A DNA stretch of 44,620 nucleotides from Tidjanibacter sp. (GCA_045597245.1 JAZODY010000111.1:1-44620); one strand, 5' to 3'. Shown: positions 6,611-22,888, counted from the stretch's first letter. Notes: generated by a model from the sequence alone, not told the origin. Translations and numbers: made by a program.

Positions 6611-6823
6611 GAAGACATTAAGATTCCTCTAATCGCAAATCTTGACGAAATAACTCCCGAACAGGCGCGGGAGTATGTCGAGTTCGTTGCAACGCTGCGC
6701 CTTAATCAGCGCCGGTGGTTCAGTACGCATAACCCGCAGGCACTGGAAACCAGCAAATGGATGGAGCATGCCCTTGACAAACTCAACGGCGCTCTGTTAG
6801 ACCCTAACCCAAAACTATTCTAA
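6608..6823 (+). CDS. Hypothetical protein
   Basis: 71 aa ORF with A-rich leader. Confidence 0.7.
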   Translation: MEDIKIPLIANLDEITPEQAREYVEFVATLRLNQRRWFSTHNPQALETSKWMEHALDKLNGALLDPNPKLF

Positions 6824-6824
6824 T

Positions 6825-7013
6825 ATGAAGACGCGCATAATCTGTCAGAATGATTCCCTGACAATCGAAATCCAGCGGGCGAAGTTCAAACATTGGTTCC
6901 GGTACGGGCAGCACCGCGAAACTGATGCGGCCTTTACGCAAGCGCTGGCAGAGGGCGCAGTCGAATGGCCGCGAAAAATCATCAATCGGGGACAACTTTT
7001 TCCAGAAAAGTGA
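6825..7013 (+). CDS. Hypothetical protein
   Basis: 62 aa ORF abutting the previous gene. Confidence 0.55.
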   Translation: MKTRIICQNDSLTIEIQRAKFKHWFRYGQHRETDAAFTQALAEGAVEWPRKIINRGQLFPEK

Positions 7014-7029
7014 AAAAAGTTAAATTTTT

Positions 7030-7061
7030 TGGTACAATGTTAAAAAAAAGTTGTATATTTG
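7030..7061 (+). promoter_or_regulatory. Early promoter repeat, copy 2
   Basis: Identical 32-mer to 775-806; downstream leader also nearly identical to ~7105. Confidence 0.85.
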
Positions 7062-7118
7062 CCTTCGAAAACATAACAACAACGGCCCGGGCCGGTTCCC
7101 GGTAAAAAGAGAAAAACA

Positions 7119-7355
7119 ATGAATAACGAACTTAACAACATCAAATCCCTTGCCGCGAAATTCTTGGAAATCGCAGACGAACTCAATGAGAAGGTTTCCG
7201 CATATCTTAATGGCTCTACTGCAAAAGAAGCCGAGGAAGCCTACGAGAAGGTCATCGCAACAGAAGTGGAATTCACAAAGGCCGCAAATGCTTATTACGG
7301 AGAGAGCTGGAAACCCTGCCTCAATTACGAACTCGCTGAAAGTTTCCTTTATTAA
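7119..7355 (+). CDS. Hypothetical early protein
   Basis: 78 aa ORF after promoter 2. Confidence 0.75.
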   Translation: MNNELNNIKSLAAKFLEIADELNEKVSAYLNGSTAKEAEEAYEKVIATEVEFTKAANAYYGESWKPCLNYELAESFLY

Positions 7356-7365
7356 TCATACATCT

Positions 7366-7605
7366 ATGAAAAAAGATATTTTGAAACAGATGATGAACAC
7401 CAAGATTGGTGCGATTGCGGGAACGACCGTTGACGTTACGGTTTTATCCGGACGTAAGGTTGGGGGAATTTACCTTACCGTTGAAATTGAGGGCAACGCG
7501 ACTGCTGCTGTTTCCAAGATTCAAAATTTCTTCGGTGCAAAATTCGATGGTTCTGAATATGATAAGGAATTGAACTATACGTATTGCGGAATCGAACTTG
7601 AATAA
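7366..7605 (+). CDS. Hypothetical early protein
   Basis: 79 aa from ATG 7366 (MKKDILKQ...). Confidence 0.7.
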   Translation: MKKDILKQMMNTKIGAIAGTTVDVTVLSGRKVGGIYLTVEIEGNATAAVSKIQNFFGAKFDGSEYDKELNYTYCGIELE

Positions 7606-7612
7606 CAGACAT

Positions 7613-7683
7613 TGCGCCGTGGTGTAATGGTAACACCCGAGTTTTTGGCACTCGTATTCCTCGTTCGAATCGGGGCGGCGCAG
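7613..7683 (+). tRNA. tRNA-Gln (UUG)
   Basis: Acceptor TGCGCCG/CGGCGCA, D stem GTGT/ACAC, anticodon stem CGAGT/ACTCG with TTG at 7645-7647, T arm CCTCG-TTCGAAT-CGGGG, discriminator G, no encoded CCA. Confidence 0.92.
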
Positions 7684-7726
7684 CAAGACTGACCGGGCAG
7701 ATTTCCCGGATTAAAAAACTATTTTT

Positions 7727-8164
7727 ATGAACGACAAAACCATTATCAAAAGAAGCCCAAAGGGTGAAGACTATGTATTCATCCGATTAAGCAATTTCAA
7801 AGTATGCGTCACTCGCGACGAGTATTTCGATAGCGATGACGAGCGCTACGAATCCGGGAACTATTTCCACTCCACCGAAACTGCAAAGAAATGCGTCGGC
7901 ACGCTGCGCGAGCTGTATGGCGAACGCCTTGAATCGTTTGCGTACAACAAGACGCTGAACGAGCATTCTTTTATCAAGAGCATCGGGGATATAATCAAGA
8001 CCCACAAGCTCGGTGCGGAAGGTGCCAAAAAAGCCAAGGCCGCAGATGCCATGCTGGCAGCCTTTAAGGACTACGCTTCCAATAGAGACCGAATCAATAA
8101 AGATTTGGCTACTACCCGCGAATGCGTCATCGAAACCATAAAAGAATTCAATCATGAAGACTAA
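7727..8164 (+). CDS. Hypothetical protein
   Basis: 145 aa ORF; D..RYESGNYF motif. Confidence 0.7.
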   Translation: MNDKTIIKRSPKGEDYVFIRLSNFKVCVTRDEYFDSDDERYESGNYFHSTETAKKCVGTLRELYGERLESFAYNKTLNEHSFIKSIGDIIKTHKLGAEGAKKAKAADAMLAAFKDYASNRDRINKDLATTRECVIETIKEFNHED

Positions 8165-8336
8165 AACTATCATAGCATACGACCGTGGCTACGGGAGGTG
8201 GCCGTGGCGTGTTCTGGTCGACGGGAAGAAAGACCCGCGCAACCGCGATTTCGAATCATTCGAAGATGTCCAAAGCACATACCGCATCTTACAGGCTGCG
8301 GGTTTCTATCATGGTTATACCATCGTAGCAGAATGA
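8154..8336 (+). CDS. Hypothetical protein
   Basis: 60 aa ORF overlapping its neighbours. Confidence 0.6.
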   Translation: MKTKTIIAYDRGYGRWPWRVLVDGKKDPRNRDFESFEDVQSTYRILQAAGFYHGYTIVAE

Positions 8337-8485
8337 GCGCAATAAAATTCATCATCCTCACGGTTATAATCGTGGCGGCATACGTCCTTGGCTATCTCGA
8401 TGGACGGATAAAAGAAATAAAGAAAATGATTGACTTCATAGAATCTATACGCGATGAAAAAAGCAGTTCTCGAAAAGATGCGTAA
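8333..8485 (+). CDS. Small membrane-anchored protein
   Basis: MSAIKFIILTVIIVAAYVLGYLDG..., ATGA overlap. Confidence 0.55.
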   Translation: MSAIKFIILTVIIVAAYVLGYLDGRIKEIKKMIDFIESIRDEKSSSRKDA

Positions 8486-8867
8486 TTGCAAAGCGTTGCA
8501 GGGCATGACCGTGGAGGAATTCGTCGACTCCGACCGATTCCTTGAAAACCTCACGAAATACATGGAGGCCCAGAAGGCTGACCGCGAGGCTGTGCGGCGC
8601 TCATACGAAGCGATGCGCAAGCTCGGCGGGGTGAAAGGGTATAAACTCCCGGCACATCCAATAGATAAAGTAATCGGCTTGTCTCCGAAAGAGTTCGCGG
8701 CAGAGTATAAAGCTATAATCGCAAAGCGGTCAACACGCCCCTTTGCAGAACGGCAATACATCAAGCAACTCGCAACGCAGGCATACGCGGTAACGGCCGA
8801 GCAGATTGTCTGCGAGGAATTTCCAGAACTGCGCAAAGAATTCGAAAAACCAACCCAAAAGAACTAA
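8454..8867 (+). CDS. Hypothetical protein
   Basis: 137 aa ORF with phage-like codon use. Confidence 0.7.
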   Translation: MKKAVLEKMRNCKALQGMTVEEFVDSDRFLENLTKYMEAQKADREAVRRSYEAMRKLGGVKGYKLPAHPIDKVIGLSPKEFAAEYKAIIAKRSTRPFAERQYIKQLATQAYAVTAEQIVCEEFPELRKEFEKPTQKN

Positions 8868-8871
8868 CGAT

Positions 8872-9129
8872 ATGGGACTTTTTACCAAGAAAAACACCGC
8901 ACCCCGTCAGACGGGCATTCGCGGAGTAATCGAGGCTCTGATGCAGGGCCGCACGCTGTCCATCTATGACAGCAAGGAATTCAAAGAGGGCGAAATGCAC
9001 ACGGTCTTTTGCAAGATTCGTCGCAAGATTTCGCGCGGACTCATTCAGGGCTATGTCCTCCGGGACGAATGGCACACGAACGAGAACGGCGTGCGTTATA
9101 AATGCTATTGGTTTGATGCGACTGAGTAG
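8872..9129 (+). CDS. Winged-HTH-like hypothetical protein
   Basis: ALMQGRTLSIYD...IRRKI...W...NGVRYKCYW. Confidence 0.55.
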   Translation: MGLFTKKNTAPRQTGIRGVIEALMQGRTLSIYDSKEFKEGEMHTVFCKIRRKISRGLIQGYVLRDEWHTNENGVRYKCYWFDATE

Positions 9130-9535
9130 TATCAGCGAAGCGGGTGCAATCGGTCATGATGGCCGGTTGCGCCTTCCGATGGACCGACTGAGCGCGGCCT
9201 TTGCAGAGCATGCCGGGGAGCGTGTGGTCATTCGTTTCTACTTCGATGTCCCCGGCTCGACCGCCTCGCAAAGAACGTACTACTACAAATACATCATTCC
9301 GACTATCAAAGACAAGCTCCATGAAATAGGCGAGCGGAGGTCTGACGGGGCGATAGACAAATGGCTGGTCGCGCAATTCCCGGGGGACAAAGAAGAAACC
9401 CAGCTTGGAACCGGCGAAGTGGTGACTGAAGCCCGCTCCCTGAATAGGCTCCAAATGTCCGAATTCCTTGAATGGCTGCAACAATTTGCGGCCGAGAACC
9501 TACAAGTTTATATCGAAGACCCAAAAGTATTATGA
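9116..9535 (+). CDS. NinB/Orf-like recombination protein
   Basis: ST.SQRTYYY ... RSL...QMSEFLEWLQQFAAE.L.V pattern. Confidence 0.6.
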   Translation: MRLSSISEAGAIGHDGRLRLPMDRLSAAFAEHAGERVVIRFYFDVPGSTASQRTYYYKYIIPTIKDKLHEIGERRSDGAIDKWLVAQFPGDKEETQLGTGEVVTEARSLNRLQMSEFLEWLQQFAAENLQVYIEDPKVL

Positions 9536-13952: not shown

Positions 13953-14843
13953 ATGGCACACAACAATTCAATCAATGTTTATCAAATGGTAACAGACCGC
14001 ATCGTCAAGATGATGCAAAACGGCATTATTCCTTGGAAGAAACCGTGGAAAGGTCTGAAAGGTGCAGGAACGGAGGATATGGCAATATCATACGTCACGC
14101 GCCGCGCATATTCTCTACTCAATCAGTGGCTCCTCGGTGAGCCGGGTGAATATCTCACCTACAACCAGATTAAGGAACTCGGCGGCAAAATCAAGAAAGG
14201 CGCGAAAGCTCGTTTCGTTGTGTTCTATACGAAGGTTGAATTCGTAAAAAAGAACGAAGAAACCGGCGAAGATGAAAAGCACTCCTATCCGCTGCTCAAA
14301 TACTATAATGTCTTCCATCTCAACGACACCGAAGGCATCCCCACCAAGATAGGCACAGAACCCCACAACGATAATATCGAAATGGACGTGACTGCGGATG
14401 CTGTCATAATGGATTACGTAGCAAGAGAAGTGGGGCTGCGCTTCGTTAACGACCAGCCCAGCAATCGCGCATATTATTCCCCGTCGGAAGATAAGGTCGT
14501 TGTTCCCATGCCGGGACAATTCGAGAATATATCCGAATACTATTCCACGGCATTCCACGAGCTTACCCACTCGACCATGAAGGCATCCCGCTGCAATAGG
14601 GAATCCGACAATGCAAATTCTTTCTTCGGGAACGAATCCTACTCCCGCGAGGAACTTGTTGCGGAAATGGGCGCGGCAATGCTCTGTGACATTACGGGTA
14701 TCAAGGACGAAAGGGCATTCAGCAATTCCGTTGCATATCTGCAAAGTTGGATTGCGGCCTTGAAAAAGGATATTAAGATGCTTGTCTGGGCCGCGGCCCG
14801 CGCCGAGAAAGCGGCAAAATACATCCTGAATATAGCAGCATAA
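13953..14843 (+). CDS. ardC: ArdC antirestriction protein (ssDNA-binding N domain + zincin-like domain)
   Basis: YQMVTDRI...GIIPWKKPW...YSLLN; AYYSPSEDKV.VP....F....YYSTAFHELTHST; YSREELVAE; YLQSW. Confidence 0.92.
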   Translation: MAHNNSINVYQMVTDRIVKMMQNGIIPWKKPWKGLKGAGTEDMAISYVTRRAYSLLNQWLLGEPGEYLTYNQIKELGGKIKKGAKARFVVFYTKVEFVKKNEETGEDEKHSYPLLKYYNVFHLNDTEGIPTKIGTEPHNDNIEMDVTADAVIMDYVAREVGLRFVNDQPSNRAYYSPSEDKVVVPMPGQFENISEYYSTAFHELTHSTMKASRCNRESDNANSFFGNESYSREELVAEMGAAMLCDITGIKDERAFSNSVAYLQSWIAALKKDIKMLVWAAARAEKAAKYILNIAA

Positions 14844-14922: not shown

Positions 14923-14962
14923 TACCTTTGCCTCTGTCTTAACGGTTGCAAGGGTAACGACC
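14923..14962 (+). promoter_or_regulatory. Promoter and AAGGG-loop leader hairpin of the modification/packaging operon
   Basis: TACCTTTG at 14923-14930; GGTTG-CAAGGGTAA-CGACC at 14944-14962. Confidence 0.65.
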
Positions 14963-15064: not shown

Positions 15065-15664
15065 ATGTTGGAAATCGTCTATCGTAAACTCGCGGACTTA
15101 AAACCGAATCCGAAGAACCCCCGTGACCCAAATCCCGAAGAAACCACTAATCTCGCCGAAAGCATCAAAAAGAACGGGATGTTTTTTGAAGCCCGTCCAA
15201 TTCTTCTATCTGACAGAACGGGCGAACTCGTCATCATCGCTGGTGAAAGGCGTTCCGAAGCGGCCCGTCTCCTCGGTTTAGAGCAAGTTCCTACAATTCT
15301 GCTGACAGGGCTTACCGAGGAGCAAGAGGATGAAATAATGGTGCGCGATAACACCCATTCCGGGGAATGGAGTCCGAAAAAACTCGCAGCAATAGCAGCC
15401 CAATGGGGGGGGGAGATTGTTAAATCTTGGGGAACCGGGGTGACATGGGACGCCGAAGAATTCGTCAAGACAACAATCCCAGAATTAGCGGGATTGGGGG
15501 AGGAAAAAGAACTTGCAGAAATCTTGAACGAGGAAGGGTCATTGGCCCGGGAAAGAATTATCATAACTTTCGCGTCGGAAGACAAGCAAAAAATTGCAGA
15601 ATTCCTTCATCTGGATGCTGTTAAAAAAGTATTATACCGATTCGAAGAAATATGCGAATCCTAA
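15065..15664 (+). CDS. ParB/Sulfiredoxin N-terminal domain protein
   Basis: LKPNPKNPR...LAESIKKNG....PILL.....IIAGERRSEAARLLGLEQVP...DN. Confidence 0.9.
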   Translation: MLEIVYRKLADLKPNPKNPRDPNPEETTNLAESIKKNGMFFEARPILLSDRTGELVIIAGERRSEAARLLGLEQVPTILLTGLTEEQEDEIMVRDNTHSGEWSPKKLAAIAAQWGGEIVKSWGTGVTWDAEEFVKTTIPELAGLGEEKELAEILNEEGSLARERIIITFASEDKQKIAEFLHLDAVKKVLYRFEEICES

Positions 15665-16389
15665 TTCCATCATATCATCGTGCGGATAGAATGAAGACCG
15701 TGCATTATTTGTGCGGTATTTGTGGCATATCCGCAACTGACATCACTATCTCTCTGCAAGATGACGCAGATATTGAAAGTTATAAGAAATTTGGTTGCGA
15801 TTTACATTATGCGCCCGCCACAAATGTTGCTGGCAATCGCAATAATGGATTGCGTTATCTGCGGGCCAAATATCCCGGGGAAGACATCGTGATGTTTGAC
15901 GACGATATTGATTATCTTTTACTTTTGACAAAAGAGGGGGATAGAAAACATGCCATCACACGGAAATTAAAGGGGGAAGAATTGATAACTATTTTATCGT
16001 CTCTCTTTGAATACGCCTCGAAAAAAGAAGCGAGTCTTTGGGGCATAAACGCCCTTGACAATCCTCTTTTCATGAAGACAAAAGTTTTGCAAAATATAAT
16101 CCTTGCTGGTTGCGTTATGGGTTTCGTCGGTGGTGGTAAAGAACTCTATTTTGATGAAGAATTTGCCCTGAAAGAAGACTACGAATTGTCGCTTCGTGCA
16201 ATGCAACAGGGTGAGCGGATATTAAAATTTTGTATGTTAGCGCCACGAACAAATTTTCGTGCTCCCGGAGGGTGTACCGAAGTGCGAAAAAAACAAAGCG
16301 AAAGCAAATTTGCAAATAGGCTTTTGGAAGAATATGCCGGCATTATAAAGGCCGACCCTCAAAGACCGGGTGAAATAAAAATGATTTAA
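15652..16389 (+). CDS. GT-A fold glycosyltransferase (TET-associated GT-like)
   Basis: ILIPSYHR, RN, VMFDDD (DxD), KEDYELSL, PGGC motifs. Confidence 0.8.
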   Translation: MRILIPSYHRADRMKTVHYLCGICGISATDITISLQDDADIESYKKFGCDLHYAPATNVAGNRNNGLRYLRAKYPGEDIVMFDDDIDYLLLLTKEGDRKHAITRKLKGEELITILSSLFEYASKKEASLWGINALDNPLFMKTKVLQNIILAGCVMGFVGGGKELYFDEEFALKEDYELSLRAMQQGERILKFCMLAPRTNFRAPGGCTEVRKKQSESKFANRLLEEYAGIIKADPQRPGEIKMI

Positions 16390-16392
16390 TAT

Positions 16393-17634
16393 ATGACAGA
16401 TTACGGAAGTCCACGATGGACGACAGAACTTGTTGATTGCAGTATGCCGATGACATTCGACACTTATTCGAATTGTGCGTTCGGCTGCCTTTATTGTTTC
16501 AGTCAATATCAGCGTGCCCTTGGAGGGGCAAAGGACGCCTATCTCAATAAAGAAGTAAAGGCCGTCAATGTGGAAAGAATAAAGAAGATGTTCCTCAATC
16601 CAGACGAGCACGCAGGTCAATTTGCCGACTATATCAAGCAGCGCCGCGTCATGCAGTGGGGCGGCCTTTCGGATGAATTCGATGGCTTTGAGCAGAAACA
16701 TGGCCGGACACTTGAGCTTCTTCGATTCTTCAAGGAAATTGATTACCCGCTCTGTTTCAGTACGAAGGGTACATTCTTCACGCTCGACCCGAAATACATG
16801 GAACTCATACAAGGACAAAAGAATTGGAATTTCAAATTTTCAATCATTACTGCCGACGAAAAGAAAGCTCGTATAATTGAAAGGGGGGTGCCAAGTCCGA
16901 AAGAAAGGCTCAAAGCAATTGAGCGGATAGCCAAAGCCGATGCCGGTGGTGCGACACTTCGATTAAGACCTTTTATCCTTGGAATCAGCACCCCGACATA
17001 TCTGGACCTTATAAAAGATGCCGCTGATGCGGGGGCTACTGCTGTCAGCACGGAATTCCTCTGTATTGAGCGCCGCAGCCTTACGCTTCGTCAGGCAATG
17101 CCGACTATCAATCAATTATGTGGTTTCGACCTGTATGACTTCTATATCAAACATAGTCCGGGAACGGGTTATTTGCGATTGAGTGAGCAAGTCAAGAAGC
17201 CTTTTTATGCAAATATGGATGCTTTATGCAAGCAATTGGGCTTGCGGTTCTATGTTTCCGATGCACACTGGAAAGAACTTTGCTGTAACGGGTCGTGTTG
17301 TGGATTAAGCAAAGATTGGAATTATGCCAAAGGACAATTCTGTCAAGCGCTGCAAATCGCCAAAGAAAAAGGTACAGTGCGCTGGAGCGATATAGAAGAA
17401 GATAACCGGGCAATATTCAGCAAAGTGCCTTATGCAAGAGCACAAGGCTTCAATTGTGGTTCGTCGGAGAATCGTGCAAAATTTGACGGCATGTCACTAA
17501 CCGATTATATGCACTATCTCTGGAACACACCAAAATCAGGGAACAGTCCTTATAAACTTTTCTTTGGTGTTATTGTTCCCGATGGCCACGATGACAATGG
17601 GGATATAATATATCGTTTCAAAGGGAGGAAATAA
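16393..17634 (+). CDS. Radical SAM enzyme (spore-photoproduct-lyase-like)
   Basis: DTYSNCAFGCLYCFS (CxxxCxxC); GGLSDEF, STKG, IERGVPSPKERL, LRLRPFI; extra C-terminal CCNGSCCG. Confidence 0.88.
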   Translation: MTDYGSPRWTTELVDCSMPMTFDTYSNCAFGCLYCFSQYQRALGGAKDAYLNKEVKAVNVERIKKMFLNPDEHAGQFADYIKQRRVMQWGGLSDEFDGFEQKHGRTLELLRFFKEIDYPLCFSTKGTFFTLDPKYMELIQGQKNWNFKFSIITADEKKARIIERGVPSPKERLKAIERIAKADAGGATLRLRPFILGISTPTYLDLIKDAADAGATAVSTEFLCIERRSLTLRQAMPTINQLCGFDLYDFYIKHSPGTGYLRLSEQVKKPFYANMDALCKQLGLRFYVSDAHWKELCCNGSCCGLSKDWNYAKGQFCQALQIAKEKGTVRWSDIEEDNRAIFSKVPYARAQGFNCGSSENRAKFDGMSLTDYMHYLWNTPKSGNSPYKLFFGVIVPDGHDDNGDIIYRFKGRK

Positions 17635-17635
17635 T

Positions 17636-18157
17636 ATGGCACGACCAACGAAATACACCCCGGAAACAACTGCTAAAATTTTCGATGCGCTGCGCTCCGG
17701 CGATACGAACGACATGGCGGCTGCAAAAGCCGGCATAAATATCGACACCTTCTATGAATGGCTGAAATCAAAGCCGGAGTTTTCCGAAGGTGTTAAAAGG
17801 TCTCGGGCCGAATATCAGGAATGGGAATTGAACGGCATTCTATCCGATGCAAAGAAATCCCTGAAAACACTGATAGTCGGTTGTGAATATGAGGAGGTCA
17901 AGACGGAGTATGAGCAAGACCCCCACGACCCAACAGCACCGCGCATAAAGAAGCAAACTCGCACCACGAAGAAGGTGCTGCCGAATGCCACGGCGGTAAT
18001 CTTTGCCCTCTGTAACCGTGACCCGGAGCATTGGCAGAACCGAGTGAGCAACGAGCTGTCCGGAAAGATTGAAACCGAAGCAAAGACTGACGTATCGCTG
18101 GCACGAGTGCCGGACGAATTGTTGGCACAGGTTATAGATTCGATAAACGGCAAATAA
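17636..18157 (+). CDS. terS: Terminase small subunit
   Basis: MARPTKYTPE, HTH (AAAKAGINIDTFYEW), PNATAVIFALCNRDPEHW; upstream of terL. Confidence 0.85.
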   Translation: MARPTKYTPETTAKIFDALRSGDTNDMAAAKAGINIDTFYEWLKSKPEFSEGVKRSRAEYQEWELNGILSDAKKSLKTLIVGCEYEEVKTEYEQDPHDPTAPRIKKQTRTTKKVLPNATAVIFALCNRDPEHWQNRVSNELSGKIETEAKTDVSLARVPDELLAQVIDSINGK

Positions 18158-18158
18158 C

Positions 18159-18272
18159 ATGGAAAAGAAAGAAGATTATAATGATTTTGCTTTGGGATTT
18201 TTTATAGGTCTTATCTGTGCTGTTTTCGTAGTGATAGCGTTTATTTACTTGAAGCCGGTAATTTCTTTGTGA
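18159..18272 (+). CDS. Small single-TM protein (37 aa); not in ORF track
   Basis: Manual translation MEKKEDYNDFALGFFIGLICAVFVVIAFIYLKPVISL fills the terS-GNAT gap exactly. Confidence 0.55.
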   Translation: MEKKEDYNDFALGFFIGLICAVFVVIAFIYLKPVISL

Positions 18273-18273
18273 T

Positions 18274-18630
18274 ATGGGATATATTTTGCATCAAAACAAA
18301 TGGTCTTGGGGCCGGGCCGAAACTATTGTAGTAGCAGAGGGGTTCGGCTTGTGCCGTGTATCAGTTGAAGACGAAGACAAATCCGTGGCTTGGCTAACCA
18401 ACCTAATTGTATTTGATGCAATGCGCCAGCAGGGACTGGGGAATCGCCTGTTAGATATAGCCATAATGAGAGCGGTGAAGATGGGCGCAAAGATACTGCG
18501 GCTCTGGGTAGAGGAAAAGAACAGCTGGCAACGCGAATGGTATGAGAGGCGCGGCTTTGTGCAGACCGATAAAGATTATGATGAAGTCGTGCTGGAAATG
18601 GACTTAAAGAAGCATTTCAATGGACATTGA
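18274..18630 (+). CDS. GNAT-family acetyltransferase
   Basis: LTNLIV....RQQGLGNRLL (motif A) ... L.V...N....WYERRGF. Confidence 0.88.
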   Translation: MGYILHQNKWSWGRAETIVVAEGFGLCRVSVEDEDKSVAWLTNLIVFDAMRQQGLGNRLLDIAIMRAVKMGAKILRLWVEEKNSWQREWYERRGFVQTDKDYDEVVLEMDLKKHFNGH

Positions 18631-20164
18631 CACCATGCACATAACGCGAGCACTCGCCGAGCATCCTGAATTGTTCTTGCAGGAGGGAGCCCGGCGAAAA
18701 CTCATTTGGTTCGCGCAGTATATGGATAGCAAGTTCCAGCCGACGCCCTTTCATATCGCCTATTACAAGGTGCTGGACATCTTCGCACAGGGGAAAGTTA
18801 AGAACTTAATCATACAAGCCCCTCCCCAGCACGGAAAGTCACAAGGAAGTAGCCGCTTCCTGCCGGCGATGATGTTGGGACTAAACCCAGACCTCAAAGT
18901 GGCAATCTGTTCCTATGCCGCCACGATTGCAAAGGACTTCAACCGCGATGTGCAGCGGCTCATCGACACAGAAGCCTATCGCGCCCTTTTTCCCGACACG
19001 CAACTCAACGGGTCAAATGTCGTCACGATTGCGAACAACTATCTTCGCAATAGCGATGTATTTGAAATCCTCGGGCACACGGGTTCGCTTCGTGTTGTGG
19101 GTCGTGGTGGCTCCCTGACTTCCAAGACCGTGGACGTGATGATATTCGACGACCTGTATAAGGACGCGCAGGAGGCAAACTCACCGCAGATTCGCACCGG
19201 GTCGTGGGATTGGTACACGAAGGTCGCCCGTACTCGTTTGCACAACGATAGTCAGCAACTGATAGTCTTCACCCGCTGGCACTCGGAGGATATAATCGGC
19301 AAGCTCATTGAAACCGAAGACGTACGGATTGCGCAGAGCTGGGCGGATTTTGAAAACGTGCCGGATTCGGCATGGGTGCTCGTGAACTTCGAAGCCATCA
19401 AAACAGGGCCGCCGAATGAGATAGATGGACGCGAGCCGGGCGCAGCCCTTTGGCCGGAGCGGCATTCGCTTGAAAGGCTCCTCGCCCAGAAGGCCCTTGA
19501 CCCAGTGGGCTTCCAATGCCTGCACCAAGGTGACCCCGGCAATGCGGATAACAAACTATATCAGCCGTTCAAGACTTGGGTGGAAAAATCCGAATGGGGG
19601 CAATACGTTCGCTCGGGGTGTTATGTGGACGTTGCAGACGAAGGCGATGACTTCCTGTTCACCGCATCGTACGACATTTACAGGAGCGACAATCAAATTT
19701 GGAATGAGCACATGAAGCGATTTGAGCCTCTGCTGTTCGCGCTGATTACAGACATAGAATTCACGGATGAATCCACCGAGGTGACGACCGTAACCGTGCC
19801 GCGCCTCATAAATACGAACAACGTACAGAAAGCATGGGTCGAGAGCAATAACGGTGGCAGTCAGTTTGAGAAGATAATCCGCAAGAAAGTCCGGGCGCTT
19901 ACTGTGCCGTTCTATCAGGGCGCTAATAAGGAGAGCCGTATCATTACGAATGCCCCGTTTGTCAATCAGCATATTATTATGCCCTTTGGCTGGGAGACAC
20001 GTTACGCCAAATTCCATGCACATATCACGAGCTTCCTGCGGAAGTTTGACGCGAACGCCCACGACGATGATGCCGACGGCTTGACAGGAATTTATGAAAA
20101 GGAGATTGCGGACGGCAACACCCGCCCGTATGCAGCCGCGAACCGTGGCGTGGTTGTCCATTAA
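18620..20164 (+). CDS. terL: Terminase large subunit
   Basis: Walker A APPQHGKS, Walker B VMIFDD, TRWH, nuclease YVDVADEGDD, HDDDADG. Confidence 0.95.
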   Translation: MDIDTMHITRALAEHPELFLQEGARRKLIWFAQYMDSKFQPTPFHIAYYKVLDIFAQGKVKNLIIQAPPQHGKSQGSSRFLPAMMLGLNPDLKVAICSYAATIAKDFNRDVQRLIDTEAYRALFPDTQLNGSNVVTIANNYLRNSDVFEILGHTGSLRVVGRGGSLTSKTVDVMIFDDLYKDAQEANSPQIRTGSWDWYTKVARTRLHNDSQQLIVFTRWHSEDIIGKLIETEDVRIAQSWADFENVPDSAWVLVNFEAIKTGPPNEIDGREPGAALWPERHSLERLLAQKALDPVGFQCLHQGDPGNADNKLYQPFKTWVEKSEWGQYVRSGCYVDVADEGDDFLFTASYDIYRSDNQIWNEHMKRFEPLLFALITDIEFTDESTEVTTVTVPRLINTNNVQKAWVESNNGGSQFEKIIRKKVRALTVPFYQGANKESRIITNAPFVNQHIIMPFGWETRYAKFHAHITSFLRKFDANAHDDDADGLTGIYEKEIADGNTRPYAAANRGVVVH

Positions 20165-20170
20165 GGCCAT

Positions 20171-20250
20171 TCTCGTGCGTTTTAAGAGCCGCGAAGGATT
20201 TCTGTGGTAAATTATACGTTTTTCGTCTTTGTGTGCGAAAGATGCGATTT
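20171..20250. repeat. Dispersed TTTAAGAG element, copy 4
   Basis: TCGTGCGTTTTAAGAGCC at 20173-20190 identical to 40749-40766. Confidence 0.7.
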
Positions 20251-20264
20251 CTCAAAAAAATAAC

Positions 20265-20299
20265 TACATTTGCACAGTAAAGCGGCAAAGGGTCAGCCG
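20265..20299 (+). promoter_or_regulatory. Late promoter and AAGGG-loop hairpin
   Basis: TACATTTG at 20265-20272; CGGC-AAAGGGTCA-GCCG at 20283-20299. Confidence 0.7.
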
Positions 20300-20334
20300 T
20301 TCGATAATCATTAACAACTAAATTCTAAACGTTT

Positions 20335-21000
20335 ATGTCTTTACTTTGTCAATGCCCGGCCGCCGCTGCAATTCCCACTATCCCGAATGTGACTTGCCCG
20401 GAAAATTTCGGCCAAATCCAGAAAGTCGCCTTCCAGCGCCTGCGCCAAGCAGACGGAACAAGAAACGCAATGGTAGGAACTGGAACTCCTCTTGCTCCCA
20501 CCATCACGAAACTCGCGACTTGGACCGCCCTTCTCGCTGCCGCTAACGGCACAAAGATTGTGGTATCCCCTTACATCAATGCTCCTGCTGATTCCGGCGG
20601 CGACGCACGCCGCTCCAGCGGTGGCAACGATGACCTCGGCGGTATCGCACAGGTGCTCGGTGGCAATCCCGTCCAATTCGACGGCTCGCTCCGTTCCGTT
20701 CCTCAAAGCGTCATCAAGACCATGAAGGAACTCGAATGCGAGGCACAAGCCGGCAACCTCGGCGTATTCCTTTTCGACGAAAACGGAAAGATTGAGGCCA
20801 TTCAGGACCAAGACGTCCCGACCACCTATTATCCCATTCCCATCCGTTCCCTGTTCATCGGTTCGAAGATACACGGGAACTTCGACGCGAAGGACTCCAA
20901 TGCCATCTCTTGGCTGTATCCCGACAACTATTCCGACGACCTCGCAATCATCACGCCGGACGATTTCAACCCGCTCACCGACCTTATTCCCGCAGAGTAA
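20335..21000 (+). CDS. Major virion protein (probable tail tube; resembles a B40-8-type major structural protein from memory)
   Basis: CPENFGQIQKVAFQR; strongly biased codons; own promoter. Confidence 0.65.
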   Translation: MSLLCQCPAAAAIPTIPNVTCPENFGQIQKVAFQRLRQADGTRNAMVGTGTPLAPTITKLATWTALLAAANGTKIVVSPYINAPADSGGDARRSSGGNDDLGGIAQVLGGNPVQFDGSLRSVPQSVIKTMKELECEAQAGNLGVFLFDENGKIEAIQDQDVPTTYYPIPIRSLFIGSKIHGNFDAKDSNAISWLYPDNYSDDLAIITPDDFNPLTDLIPAE

Positions 21001-21192
21001 ATGAACGCCAAGACAACCACGGTGACGTTGGTTGCTAACGGCGTCACTCGGGACTTTGAGCTGTCCCACGCAGAACGATTGCTGAAAATGCCCAGAAACG
21101 GCGGCTGGAAACTGCCGGAAGGTTCTAAATTCGAATTTGTGGATTATGCCATACGACGTCGACAGGATAAGAAGGGAGATAGAAAAGAATAA
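21001..21192 (+). CDS. Small hypothetical protein
   Basis: 63 aa; HAERLLKM..NGGWKLP. Confidence 0.65.
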   Translation: MNAKTTTVTLVANGVTRDFELSHAERLLKMPRNGGWKLPEGSKFEFVDYAIRRRQDKKGDRKE

Positions 21193-22888
21193 ACGTTCCG
21201 CTACCTTGACCCGTGCGAAACTGCATCAAATGCGTATAAAGTTTCACACGGTCAAGCGCGTAACGACATTCAATTCCCCTTATATCTCGATACCATTGAC
21301 ACAATTTCTGGCAATGGTAGAGAATATCTTGCCGCACGACAAATTCGTACTGTTCAAGGCGCTTTTCCGTTATCCCATCAAAACAAATGAGATAACGGAA
21401 ACGTGCTTTGACAAGTTGAGCCGCATCTTCGACGGGCGCAATCCTGTTTACAACTACCAATTCGTTAATTCCGCGCAGCGCGATGACTGGGAAGATTATC
21501 GCCTGAATAAACTCGATGAGCCGAATGTCTGGGCGACCAAAGGCTGGGAGTTCTTCAAGAGCGAAATCAATTCTGTCCTGATAGTCGATATTGCCCGCGA
21601 GCAGCGCACCCCGCTGCCGGAACCGTATTTCTATTGGCTTCCGATAGATGACGTCATTACTTACAAGGCCGACGCAACGACGGGGCAGATGGATTTCATC
21701 GTGTTCCGCCGCCGTGATAAGATTGTAGTCTTGGACGACACCTATTACCGCGTCTGGGACGACAAGAAACACACGGGCCGCATCGACGGAGCGCCGGAAC
21801 TTGAAACGGAGCATGACCTCGGCTATTGCCCGGCCCGCTTCTTCTGGAATGAGCCCATATCGCTGGACGAGCCGGATGTAAAGGCTTCCCCCCTGTCGGC
21901 AGAGTTGGAGTCGCTGGATTGGTTCGAATTCTTCCACATCTCCAAGCGCCAGCTCGACCTCATGGGCGCATATCCTATCCTTTCGGGTTATGAGCAGAAA
22001 TGCGATTTCAGCAATGCGGAGAATGGCGACTACTGCGACGGTGGTTTCCTGCGTGACAAGCAAGGCCGCTACCGTCTGGATATGGCCGGACTTCTCATGC
22101 GCTGCCCGAAGTGCGGGAATAAACGCATCATCGGCGCGGGGTCATTCGTAGAAATCCCCGTCCCCTCCGCAGAGGAGGGTCAGCCCGACCTTCGTAATCC
22201 GGTGCAGTTGCTGACCGTTGACCGCGAGGCCCTTGACTATAATGTCGATGAGGAGAAGCGGCTGCGTGAAGACATCATCACATCGGTAGTTGGTCAGGAC
22301 GAAATCGTCACTGACCGCGATGCTTTCAATGAGCAGCAGGTGCGTGCGAACTTCGAAAGCGTGACGACCGTGCTGAACCGTGTGAAGCGGGGCTTTGAAG
22401 CCGCGCAGGAATGGGTCGATGCGACGGTGTGCCGTCTGCGTTACGGGAAATCTTTCCTGACCGCAAAAATCAATTACGGGACGGAATTCTTCCTTTACAC
22501 CGCCGACGAGCTGCGCCAGCAGTACAAGGCCGCGAAGGAAGCCGGTGCCCCGGAAGCCGAACTGGATGTGATGCTGAACCGCATCCTTGAAACGGAATAT
22601 CGCAATGACCCGATGCAGTTGCGCCGCATGCTCATTCTGTCCGAGCTTGAACCGCTGCGGCATCTGACCCGCGATGAAGTGATAACCCTGTATAAGGACG
22701 GAATCATTTCCGAGCAGCAGATGCGAATTAAGTTAAATTTTCCTAACTTTGTGCGTCGTTTCGAGCGCGAAAACATGAATATCGTTGACTTTGGCAAGGA
22801 CATTCCCTACCAGCGCAAGATAGATACTATTACAGCCGAGTTCGGACGTTATGCCGAGGAGCAGAAGCCGCAACCGGCGAATGTTTAA
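21146..22888 (+). CDS. Portal protein (with Cys4 Zn-finger insertion)
   Basis: ~580 aa between terL and head genes; HDLGYCPARF; C..C..CPKC insert. Confidence 0.75.
   Translation: MPYDVDRIRREIEKNKRSATLTRAKLHQMRIKFHTVKRVTTFNSPYISIPLTQFLAMVENILPHDKFVLFKALFRYPIKTNEITETCFDKLSRIFDGRNPVYNYQFVNSAQRDDWEDYRLNKLDEPNVWATKGWEFFKSEINSVLIVDIAREQRTPLPEPYFYWLPIDDVITYKADATTGQMDFIVFRRRDKIVVLDDTYYRVWDDKKHTGRIDGAPELETEHDLGYCPARFFWNEPISLDEPDVKASPLSAELESLDWFEFFHISKRQLDLMGAYPILSGYEQKCDFSNAENGDYCDGGFLRDKQGRYRLDMAGLLMRCPKCGNKRIIGAGSFVEIPVPSAEEGQPDLRNPVQLLTVDREALDYNVDEEKRLREDIITSVVGQDEIVTDRDAFNEQQVRANFESVTTVLNRVKRGFEAAQEWVDATVCRLRYGKSFLTAKINYGTEFFLYTADELRQQYKAAKEAGAPEAELDVMLNRILETEYRNDPMQLRRMLILSELEPLRHLTRDEVITLYKDGIISEQQMRIKLNFPNFVRRFERENMNIVDFGKDIPYQRKIDTITAEFGRYAEEQKPQPANV

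Follow-up and report, generated by a model that had tools for sequence, protein, structure and literature searches.

A ParB, glycosyltransferase and radical SAM cassette beside the terminase genes of a Tidjanibacter phage contig: a candidate oxygen-free route to modified thymine in DNA

The window described here is a whole phage contig of 44.6 kb (44,620 nucleotides; Tidjanibacter sp., GCA_045597245.1, JAZODY010000111.1), taken from an 83%-complete bin and bearing a terminal repeat of 19 nucleotides (nt). Upstream of its terminase genes lies a cassette of three genes, coding for a ParB-like protein, a glycosyltransferase (GT) and a radical S-adenosylmethionine (SAM) protein resembling spore photoproduct lyase (SPL). 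In related loci the ParB and radical SAM genes are retained, the modification genes between them are exchanged, and no TET/JBP dioxygenase was detected in the loci sampled. The cassette is interpreted as a candidate system for making and glycosylating a modified thymine without oxygen. The features are as follows.

14923-14931, + strand: promoter-like site TACCTTTGC, intergenic, upstream of parB, Bacteroidetes-type -7 pattern
15065-15664, + strand: parB, ParB-like protein of 199 amino acids with ParB-N domain, acidic linker and short conserved C-terminal motif (PF02195)
15652-16389, + strand: gene for a TAGT-like GT-A glycosyltransferase of 245 amino acids, occupying a variable slot (PF20691, phrog_842)
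16393-17634, + strand: gene for an SPL-like radical SAM protein of 413 amino acids (PF04055)
17636-18157, + strand: terS, terminase small subunit, same operon, context (phrog_309, E 1.4e-26)
18159-18272, + strand: gene for a hydrophobic peptide of 37 amino acids, context, from translation
18274-18630, + strand: gene for a GNAT acetyltransferase, context, of another family than the GNAT found in the slot
18620-20164, + strand: terL, terminase large subunit, context (phrog_38, E 1.1e-79; PF03237)

All genes from parB to terL lie on the + strand, and neighbours either overlap slightly or are 1-3 nt apart; the open reading frames and tight packing given in the original prediction were recovered, and Pfam and PHROG matches back their labels. 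The promoter proposed at 14923 fared less well. The motif, of the Bacteroidetes -7 type (consensus TAnnTTTG), is present, but with 12 matches in the window and 8.2 +/- 3.0 expected by chance the site is plausible as a promoter and no more. A sigma-70 promoter scan gave chance-level results. The gene arrangement is not an assembly artefact, since a 6-kb contig from a gut run matches 15489-21500 with 246 differences, and parB to terS were recovered piecewise from a bovine gut run.

The reported absence of other makers of a sugar acceptor also held. Profile searches of the contig returned no match for TET/JBP, C5-methyltransferase, thymidylate synthase, PolA or PolB; the markers of the pre-replicative pathway of phages T4, M6 and ViI (a thymidylate-synthase-like hydroxymethylase and the phage's own DNA polymerase) are therefore unmatched there. 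Elsewhere in the bin, PF00303 and PolA matched contigs other than this one, and PolB matched none. Profiles for kinase and for amino acid:DNA transferase (ADDT) had no match anywhere in the window, and no tyrosine integrase was matched on the contig.

A fixed ParB and radical SAM frame with a swappable slot

The survey of gene neighbourhoods took the radical SAM gene as its anchor and covered 126 loci (80 viral and 46 genome loci). Within 5 kb of this gene, ParB was found in 111 loci and a partner enzyme in 122, and TerL was near it in 106. The partners were ADDT with kinase and GNAT (50 loci), kinase only (20), ADDT with kinase (19), TAGT with HAD/kinase and cytidylyltransferase (12), TAGT only (11), GNAT only (8), and other or cut (6). 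TAGT and ADDT shared a cassette in none of the 126. Radical SAM and GT homologues, which the original prediction had joined in one system, do share cassettes in this survey and also occur as fusions.

The ParB and radical SAM genes form a fixed frame, between which TAGT, P-loop kinase, ADDT and GNAT genes are swapped. The exchange was seen between L084 (ADDT, kinase, GNAT) and L129 (HAD/kinase, cytidylyltransferase, TAGT), whose flanks are 92-93% identical at the nucleotide level, and likewise between L110 (kinase) and L147 (the TAGT set; flanks 94-95% identical), L320 (TAGT) and L321 (kinase; 90-94%), and L302 (GNAT, 6900-9239) and L303 (kinase, 6765-9239; 95-98%). Different partner classes stand beside radical SAM proteins that are 97.6-99.8% identical. 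On a quick radical SAM tree of 82 rows (from 220 classed loci, collapsed class by class at 88%, with unclassed loci and those whose genes are cut excluded) the partner class changes 33 times, the minimum being 4 and the mean after shuffling 40; the GNAT-only locus L309 is cut upstream and unreliable. That one nearly unchanged enzyme accompanies sugar, phosphate, amino-acid and acyl transferases suits an enzyme that supplies a common precursor and hardly suits one that tailors a single product. The kinase and ADDT families act on DNA containing 5-hydroxymethyluracil (5hmU) (PMC8989533), and GT-A enzymes act on 5-hydroxymethylcytosine (5hmC) or 5hmU (10.1101/2023.12.21.572611).

Cassettes with a sole GNAT or a sole kinase between ParB and the radical SAM gene were noted at L022, L032, L046, L050, L062, L075 and L117. 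Two Segatella copri isolate genomes, L108 (strain HDE04, NZ_CP152346.1) and L110 (strain H-2632, NZ_JAVSCC010000002.1), carry a ParB-ParB-kinase-radical SAM cassette, and these isolates are a practical source of virion DNA.

Mutual exclusion of the radical SAM gene and TET/JBP, raised in the original prediction, was borne out by the survey: none of 206 radical SAM loci contained TET/JBP, and none of 80 viral loci anchored on TET/JBP contained the window-type radical SAM gene. The 206 are not free of duplicates and closely related loci, and each anchored set was limited to the 80 top hits of a narrow query. The 80 TET/JBP loci contain ParB (46), ADDT (50), kinase (57), TAGT (13) and TerL (22). 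Neither TET/JBP nor thymidylate synthase (PF00303) was matched in any of 50 whole radical SAM-bearing records, which are the longer contigs (28 of them at least 90% complete); C5-methyltransferase was present in 8. Positive controls for the TET/JBP search were detected in 3/3 and 3/3 cases. SAM synthetase lies in 62 of the 206 radical SAM loci and in 0 of the 80 TET loci, a difference that lineage may confound. These sets describe a pattern and are not a corrected statistic. In the cultured phages Rich, Klevey and MO526 (3 of 36 listed records), the nearest GT/ADDT homologues adjoin TET/JBP, and it was on these dioxygenases that the 80 TET/JBP loci were anchored. By record title, 41 of the 46 genome hits belong to lineages that we take to be anaerobic, the other 5 being ambiguous.

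A second survey, anchored on the window's terL, gave 70 loci from sister phages, of which 51 could be scored. The slot before terS is a DNA-modification hot spot in these phages: it held N6/N4 methyltransferases in 7 loci, queuosine-pathway genes in 2, ParB or MetK only in 2 and nothing recognised in 32, the remaining loci being considered below.

The three cassette proteins

The radical SAM protein matched PF04055 at 35.2 bits, above the 29.5 cut-off. Its CxxxCxxC cluster motif (C28, C32 and C35) is kept in 80/80, 79/81 and 81/81 alignment rows, as the original prediction would have it. The CCNGSCCG stretch, also singled out there, is conserved in its second CC (C302 and C303, 81/83 each) and not in its first (29/86 and 20/86); C16 (72/74) and C224 (71/86) are further conserved cysteines in the same 86-row alignment. 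The predicted model (pLDDT 96.5) is a partial TIM-barrel, and the top structural matches listed are radical SAM enzymes. The closest solved fold is SPL (Z 20.0, root-mean-square deviation 3.0, 258 aligned residues, 16% identity; Foldseek E 2e-9), followed by the next family at Z 16.2, with RlmN at Z 14.3; the SPL match is confined to residues 1-290.

By sequence the protein falls outside SPL, PA0069 and Rv2578c, in a large family of its own. Pfam at E 0.05 gave PF04055 alone, NCBIfam hits included no SPL model, a PDB sequence search (phmmer, E 1) returned no SPL chain and nothing useful, and the NCBIfam models of PA0069 and Rv2578c were matched at 50.9 and 38.4 bits, far under their cut-offs of 360 and 430. 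One search gave 2,415 proteins of the family at E 0.001 among 7,716 candidates, and another gave 226 clusters at E 1e-30. A tblastn search of 50,697 GenBank phage records gave no match at E 1e-5; ESM Atlas matches were limited to unnamed or generic radical SAM clusters, and the best match in a viral fold library carries no name. Fusions of radical SAM to TAGT were found, in both domain orders, in 9 of 30 scanned members, one of which also has a P-loop kinase3 domain; the 30 were mostly long, and 28 of them came from 150 listed cluster representatives.

Several other architectures were observed in the family. Intein or homing-endonuclease domains occur in many members (P0124, P0133, P0137, P0149, P0169, P0217, P0223, P0229 and P0233), and P0126 is fused to an FkbM methyltransferase. 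A short relative of 280 amino acids keeps the C-terminal CC and has no last domain; it lies between terS and terL (L412:6135-7001, L392:6153-6992, L396:5948-6796), accompanied by QueC, QueD and FolE or by TAGT plus another radical SAM protein. Second copies are listed with it at L003, L069, L071 and L122.

The GT-A motifs claimed for the GT are all present (R10, DDD at 83-85, EDY at 175-177), and this R..DDD..EDY site has been described for phage DNA GTs (10.1101/2023.12.21.572611). Against PF20691 (TAGT) the protein scored 24.1 bits (E 4e-5), under the 27.5 gathering score; its clade mates score above it, for example L019 at 77.6. The predicted model (pLDDT 91.5) gave GT-A fold matches that include TarP at E about 1e-6 to 1e-7, TarS, protein O-mannose GlcNAc transferase, and AvpGT with Ara-A, an adenine nucleoside. 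Phage GTs proven to act on DNA likewise had TarP as their best PDB match (10.1101/2023.12.21.572611). On the GT tree the protein falls, with 99% support, in a clade made up of 18 radical SAM-linked GTs; two other supported clades contain TET-linked together with radical SAM-linked GTs. A single-sequence search of viral contigs with the GT found nothing. A profile search gave 31 loci, all with radical SAM, and was not counted, being circular because the profile was built from radical SAM neighbours. In one TAGT clade DDD is replaced by S-D-K or A-D-K, and a HAD/kinase fusion and a cytidylyltransferase are adjacent (L025:3741-6014, L005:2032-4329, L129:8496-10765, L147:8525-10768). This set suggests a phage-made, CDP-activated donor and an undescribed base modification.

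ParB matched PF02195 at 38.7 bits, and its alignment has the layout given in the feature list. The C-terminal motif is common to radical SAM-linked ParBs and gave no cross-hit with TET-linked ParBs at E 0.01. A predicted complex of ParB with the radical SAM protein scored 0.52, the best control scoring 0.00, with at least 65% of contacts agreeing between runs and partner pLDDT of at least 69. In calibration, 116 of 157 solved pairs passed the mark, as did 2 of 215 mismatched ones; the range up to 0.60 held 18 of the 157 solved pairs and both passing mismatches, and since alignments were our own these counts hold roughly. The modelling thus weakly suggests a complex. Comparable ParBs have a published role in activating a thymine oxidase (PMC13229309), and by analogy the ParB of the window is likely to be an activator of the radical SAM enzyme. 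Coupling of modification to packaging, the part given to ParB in the original prediction, found no support: TerL is near in 106 of the 126 radical SAM loci, though most sister phages package their DNA without a ParB in the slot.

Interpretation and alternatives

On this evidence we consider it reasonably probable that the radical SAM enzyme, helped by ParB, makes 5hmU in replicated DNA without oxygen and that the GT glycosylates the product. A broader claim, that the shared handle is a product of this enzyme whatever the route, is one we hold with good confidence. The thymine oxidase of related phages is likely to have been replaced here by the radical SAM enzyme. Among the roles offered in the original prediction, oxygen-free creation of the sugar acceptor is the branch supported by the neighbourhood, slot swaps, exclusion and fusions; direct C-linkage and sugar remodelling are disfavoured because near-identical radical SAM proteins accompany kinase, ADDT or GNAT without a GT.

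The cassette would act on some of the thymines in phage DNA after replication by the host polymerase. A 5'-deoxyadenosyl radical would abstract hydrogen from the thymine 5-methyl group, a putative second metal site (C16, C224, C302, C303) would remove one electron from the thymine radical, and addition of water at the exocyclic carbon would yield 5hmU. One SAM would be consumed per modified base, which fits the bias of SAM synthetase towards radical SAM loci. The GT would then cap 5hmU with a sugar from a host NDP-sugar, giving a base-J-like nucleoside that may protect the DNA against host nucleases. Extended to the phage radical SAM family as a whole, the proposal is of a widespread, ParB-switched, oxygen-free hydroxylase of thymine in duplex DNA, an anaerobic counterpart of TET/JBP and third route to 5hmU, feeding a swappable slot from which sugar, phosphate, amino-acid, acyl and CDP-donor-derived thymine modifications arise; to this extended form we give a little better than an even chance.

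The nearest known systems are the 5mYOX clusters (TET/JBP clade C1; O'Toole et al. 2026, PMC13229309). Their ParB consists of a nucleotide-binding domain, a linker and a short C-terminal domain and has no DNA-binding domain, a layout with which the alignment of the window's ParB agrees. Neighbours from the GT, P-loop kinase, ADDT, terminase, APH, HAD and GNAT families, the usual absence of a C5-methyltransferase and a post-replicative logic are common to both. The present cassettes differ in having an SPL-like radical SAM protein instead of the Fe/2OG dioxygenase, in a ParB C-terminal motif of a different sequence family, and in hosts that, by record title, are mostly anaerobes. With base J (JBP and JGT; PMC8256090) and phage 5mYOX with GT-A (10.1101/2023.12.21.572611) the cassette shares the R..DDD..EDY GT-A and the predicted glycosylation of a hydroxymethyl-pyrimidine; in those systems, unlike the route proposed here, the handle comes from an oxygen-dependent dioxygenase (PMC8256090). 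Phages M6, ViI and PaMx11 (5-HMUDK and AADT; PMC8989533) have kinase, ADDT and GNAT families that also fill the slot in cassette relatives, but their 5hmU is made before replication by a dUMP hydroxymethylase. The M6 radical SAM isomerase gp53 is also SPL-like, but it acts late, tailoring a glycine adduct, and its gene lies beside kinase and AADT genes (PMC8989533). SplB, the closest solved fold, and PA0069/Rv2578c share CxxxCxxC with the window protein, which differs in having about 120 further residues at the C-terminus that the SPL alignment does not cover, in its extra conserved cysteines and in its phage modification context. SPL has thymine in DNA as its substrate (PMC8989533).

In 2022 Lee pointed to radical SAM enzymes on contigs with kinase and AADT, and to TET/JBP in place of the hydroxymethylase (PMC8989533). 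Of the phage GT contigs mined in another study, about 65% had neither hydroxymethylase nor TET/JBP as a neighbour (10.1101/2023.12.21.572611). The word 'radical' has 0 occurrences in the main text and 12 supplement files of O'Toole 2026 (PMC13229309). No literature describing this radical SAM family as DNA-modifying was found in a search that covered subscription journals thinly, and Iyer 2013 may mention the association.

The alternative that survives best, although we regard it as unlikely, is that the radical SAM enzyme makes the common handle by another chemistry or on another base, for instance by placing a SAM-derived one-carbon unit on cytosine C5. The four extra conserved cysteines could serve a methyl transfer like that of RlmN. 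SAM synthetase is often a neighbour, and TAGT-like GTs also act on 5hmC (10.1101/2023.12.21.572611), but the kinase and ADDT partners were characterised on 5hmU (PMC8989533), ParB-dependent dioxygenases oxidise thymine (PMC13229309), and the fold search placed SPL well above RlmN (Z 20.0 and 14.3).

Somewhat less likely again is that the GT, with ParB, acts on an unmodified base or on the handle of an unrecognised enzyme, the radical SAM protein being a later tailor. M6 gp53 is such a tailoring isomerase, and SPL-like (PMC8989533), complete sister genomes have ParB and TAGT without a known handle-maker, and AvpGT with its adenine nucleoside is among the GT fold matches. One tailor could hardly serve the chemically unlike partners that accompany radical SAM proteins 97.6-99.8% identical, however; the kinase-only cassettes would be left without a substrate, and the lack of a tblastn match among the 50,697 GenBank phages also speaks against this reading.

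An SPL-like repair or de-modifying enzyme, merely co-transcribed with modification genes, seems very improbable. SPL is the top fold match and one source names one homologue 'DNA repair photolyase'; set against this are the missing SPL hits in Pfam (E 0.05) and PDB sequences (E 1), the fusions to TAGT and kinase, the 122 of 126 loci in which a partner enzyme is no more than 5 kb away, and whole records in which no other handle-maker was matched (TET/JBP and thymidylate synthase 0/50 each). We give still less credence to a thymine radical or cation joined straight to the sugar as a C-linked glycoside with no free hydroxymethyl step: channelling is conceivable in the radical SAM-TAGT fusions, but the GT retains an ordinary R..DDD..EDY site and same-slot kinases require a hydroxyl (PMC8989533). 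Equally slight is the chance that the GT is unrelated to DNA and has virion proteins or surface polymers of the host as its substrate, for although TarP, TarS and protein O-mannose GlcNAc transferase are among its matches and it is co-transcribed with packaging genes, demonstrated phage DNA glycosyltransferases match TarP best in the PDB too (10.1101/2023.12.21.572611), DNA kinases and ADDT take the place of the GT in swapped cassettes, and the sister-phage slot has DNA methyltransferases (7/51) and queuosine-pathway genes (2/51).

Several observations weigh against the proposed ParB-assisted thymine hydroxylation. No radical SAM enzyme is known to hydroxylate a base in DNA, and the putative second metal site is read just from the conservation of its cysteines. 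The 280-amino-acid relative occurs in 7-deazaguanine (queuosine-type) cassettes, so that hydroxymethyl chemistry does not define the family in its wider sense. No known 5hmU reaction accounts for the 8 loci with GNAT alone; such a cassette would imply that the handle is acylated directly. Because of the duplicates, close kin and narrow best-80 sampling, the exclusion of TET/JBP is partly one of lineage and habitat, and many of the genome hits are metagenome-assembled bins to which phage contigs may have been mis-assigned. A related rumen contig (run X5; one contig, at an 85% likeness setting) has 2,510 other letters instead of 15100-17635. Finally, the 413-amino-acid radical SAM protein was found in 0 of the 51 scorable terL-anchored sister loci, 8 of which have ParB and TAGT without it. 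Four ParB+TAGT records that are 92-100% complete gave no match for TET/JBP, thymidylate synthase or radical SAM, so that TAGT-like enzymes may work without a known handle-maker.

These four near-complete loci are L391, L398, L425 and L354 (records G053, G054, G056 and G061), and further ParB+TAGT cassettes before terS were seen at L376, L388, L417 and L421. The orphan TAGT-like GTs fall in clades separate from that of the window GT; they may glycosylate a base directly or use the handle of an unrecognised enzyme.

The described routes to a hydroxymethyl handle are two, nucleotide hydroxymethylases and oxygen-dependent TET/JBP dioxygenases, and small phages of anaerobes have neither. If ParB-assisted thymine hydroxylation by the radical SAM enzyme is correct, it would open a third route that needs no oxygen, add a new DNA reaction to the radical SAM repertoire, and extend the idea of ParB as an activator to an unrelated enzyme class. 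Undescribed modified bases would then be predicted in common gut and rumen phages, with a bearing on restriction resistance and on the sequencing quality of such DNA.

Neighbouring genes and restriction sites

The GNAT gene and the transmembrane peptide, which the original prediction included in its coordinates, are better regarded as lineage passengers. The window GNAT had no convincing homologue in the radical SAM loci (best E 0.01). Its family is present in 15 of the 70 terL-anchored loci, 14 of which have no ParB, TAGT or radical SAM, and for this reason it was dropped from the system; a role as the sugar acetylase of the cassette was rejected on the same homologue search and occurrences. 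The stretch coding for the 37-amino-acid peptide (18159-18272) is skipped in a related contig.

Restriction-site avoidance was considered as a read-out of modification and rejected. GATC, CTAG, GATATC, CTGCAG, GGCGCC, GCGCGC, TTTAAA and CATATG have zero occurrences in the window and CCWGG nearly zero, but sister loci without the cassette share the depletion of GATC and CTAG (observed/expected 0.29 and 0.03), so that their avoidance is uninformative.

A second terL homologue, 44% identical, is present in the same bin (G000:C279:2296-3630) and likely belongs to another phage. Immediately 5' of the promoter-like site of the cassette, at 13953-14843, the window carries an ArdC-like anti-restriction gene.

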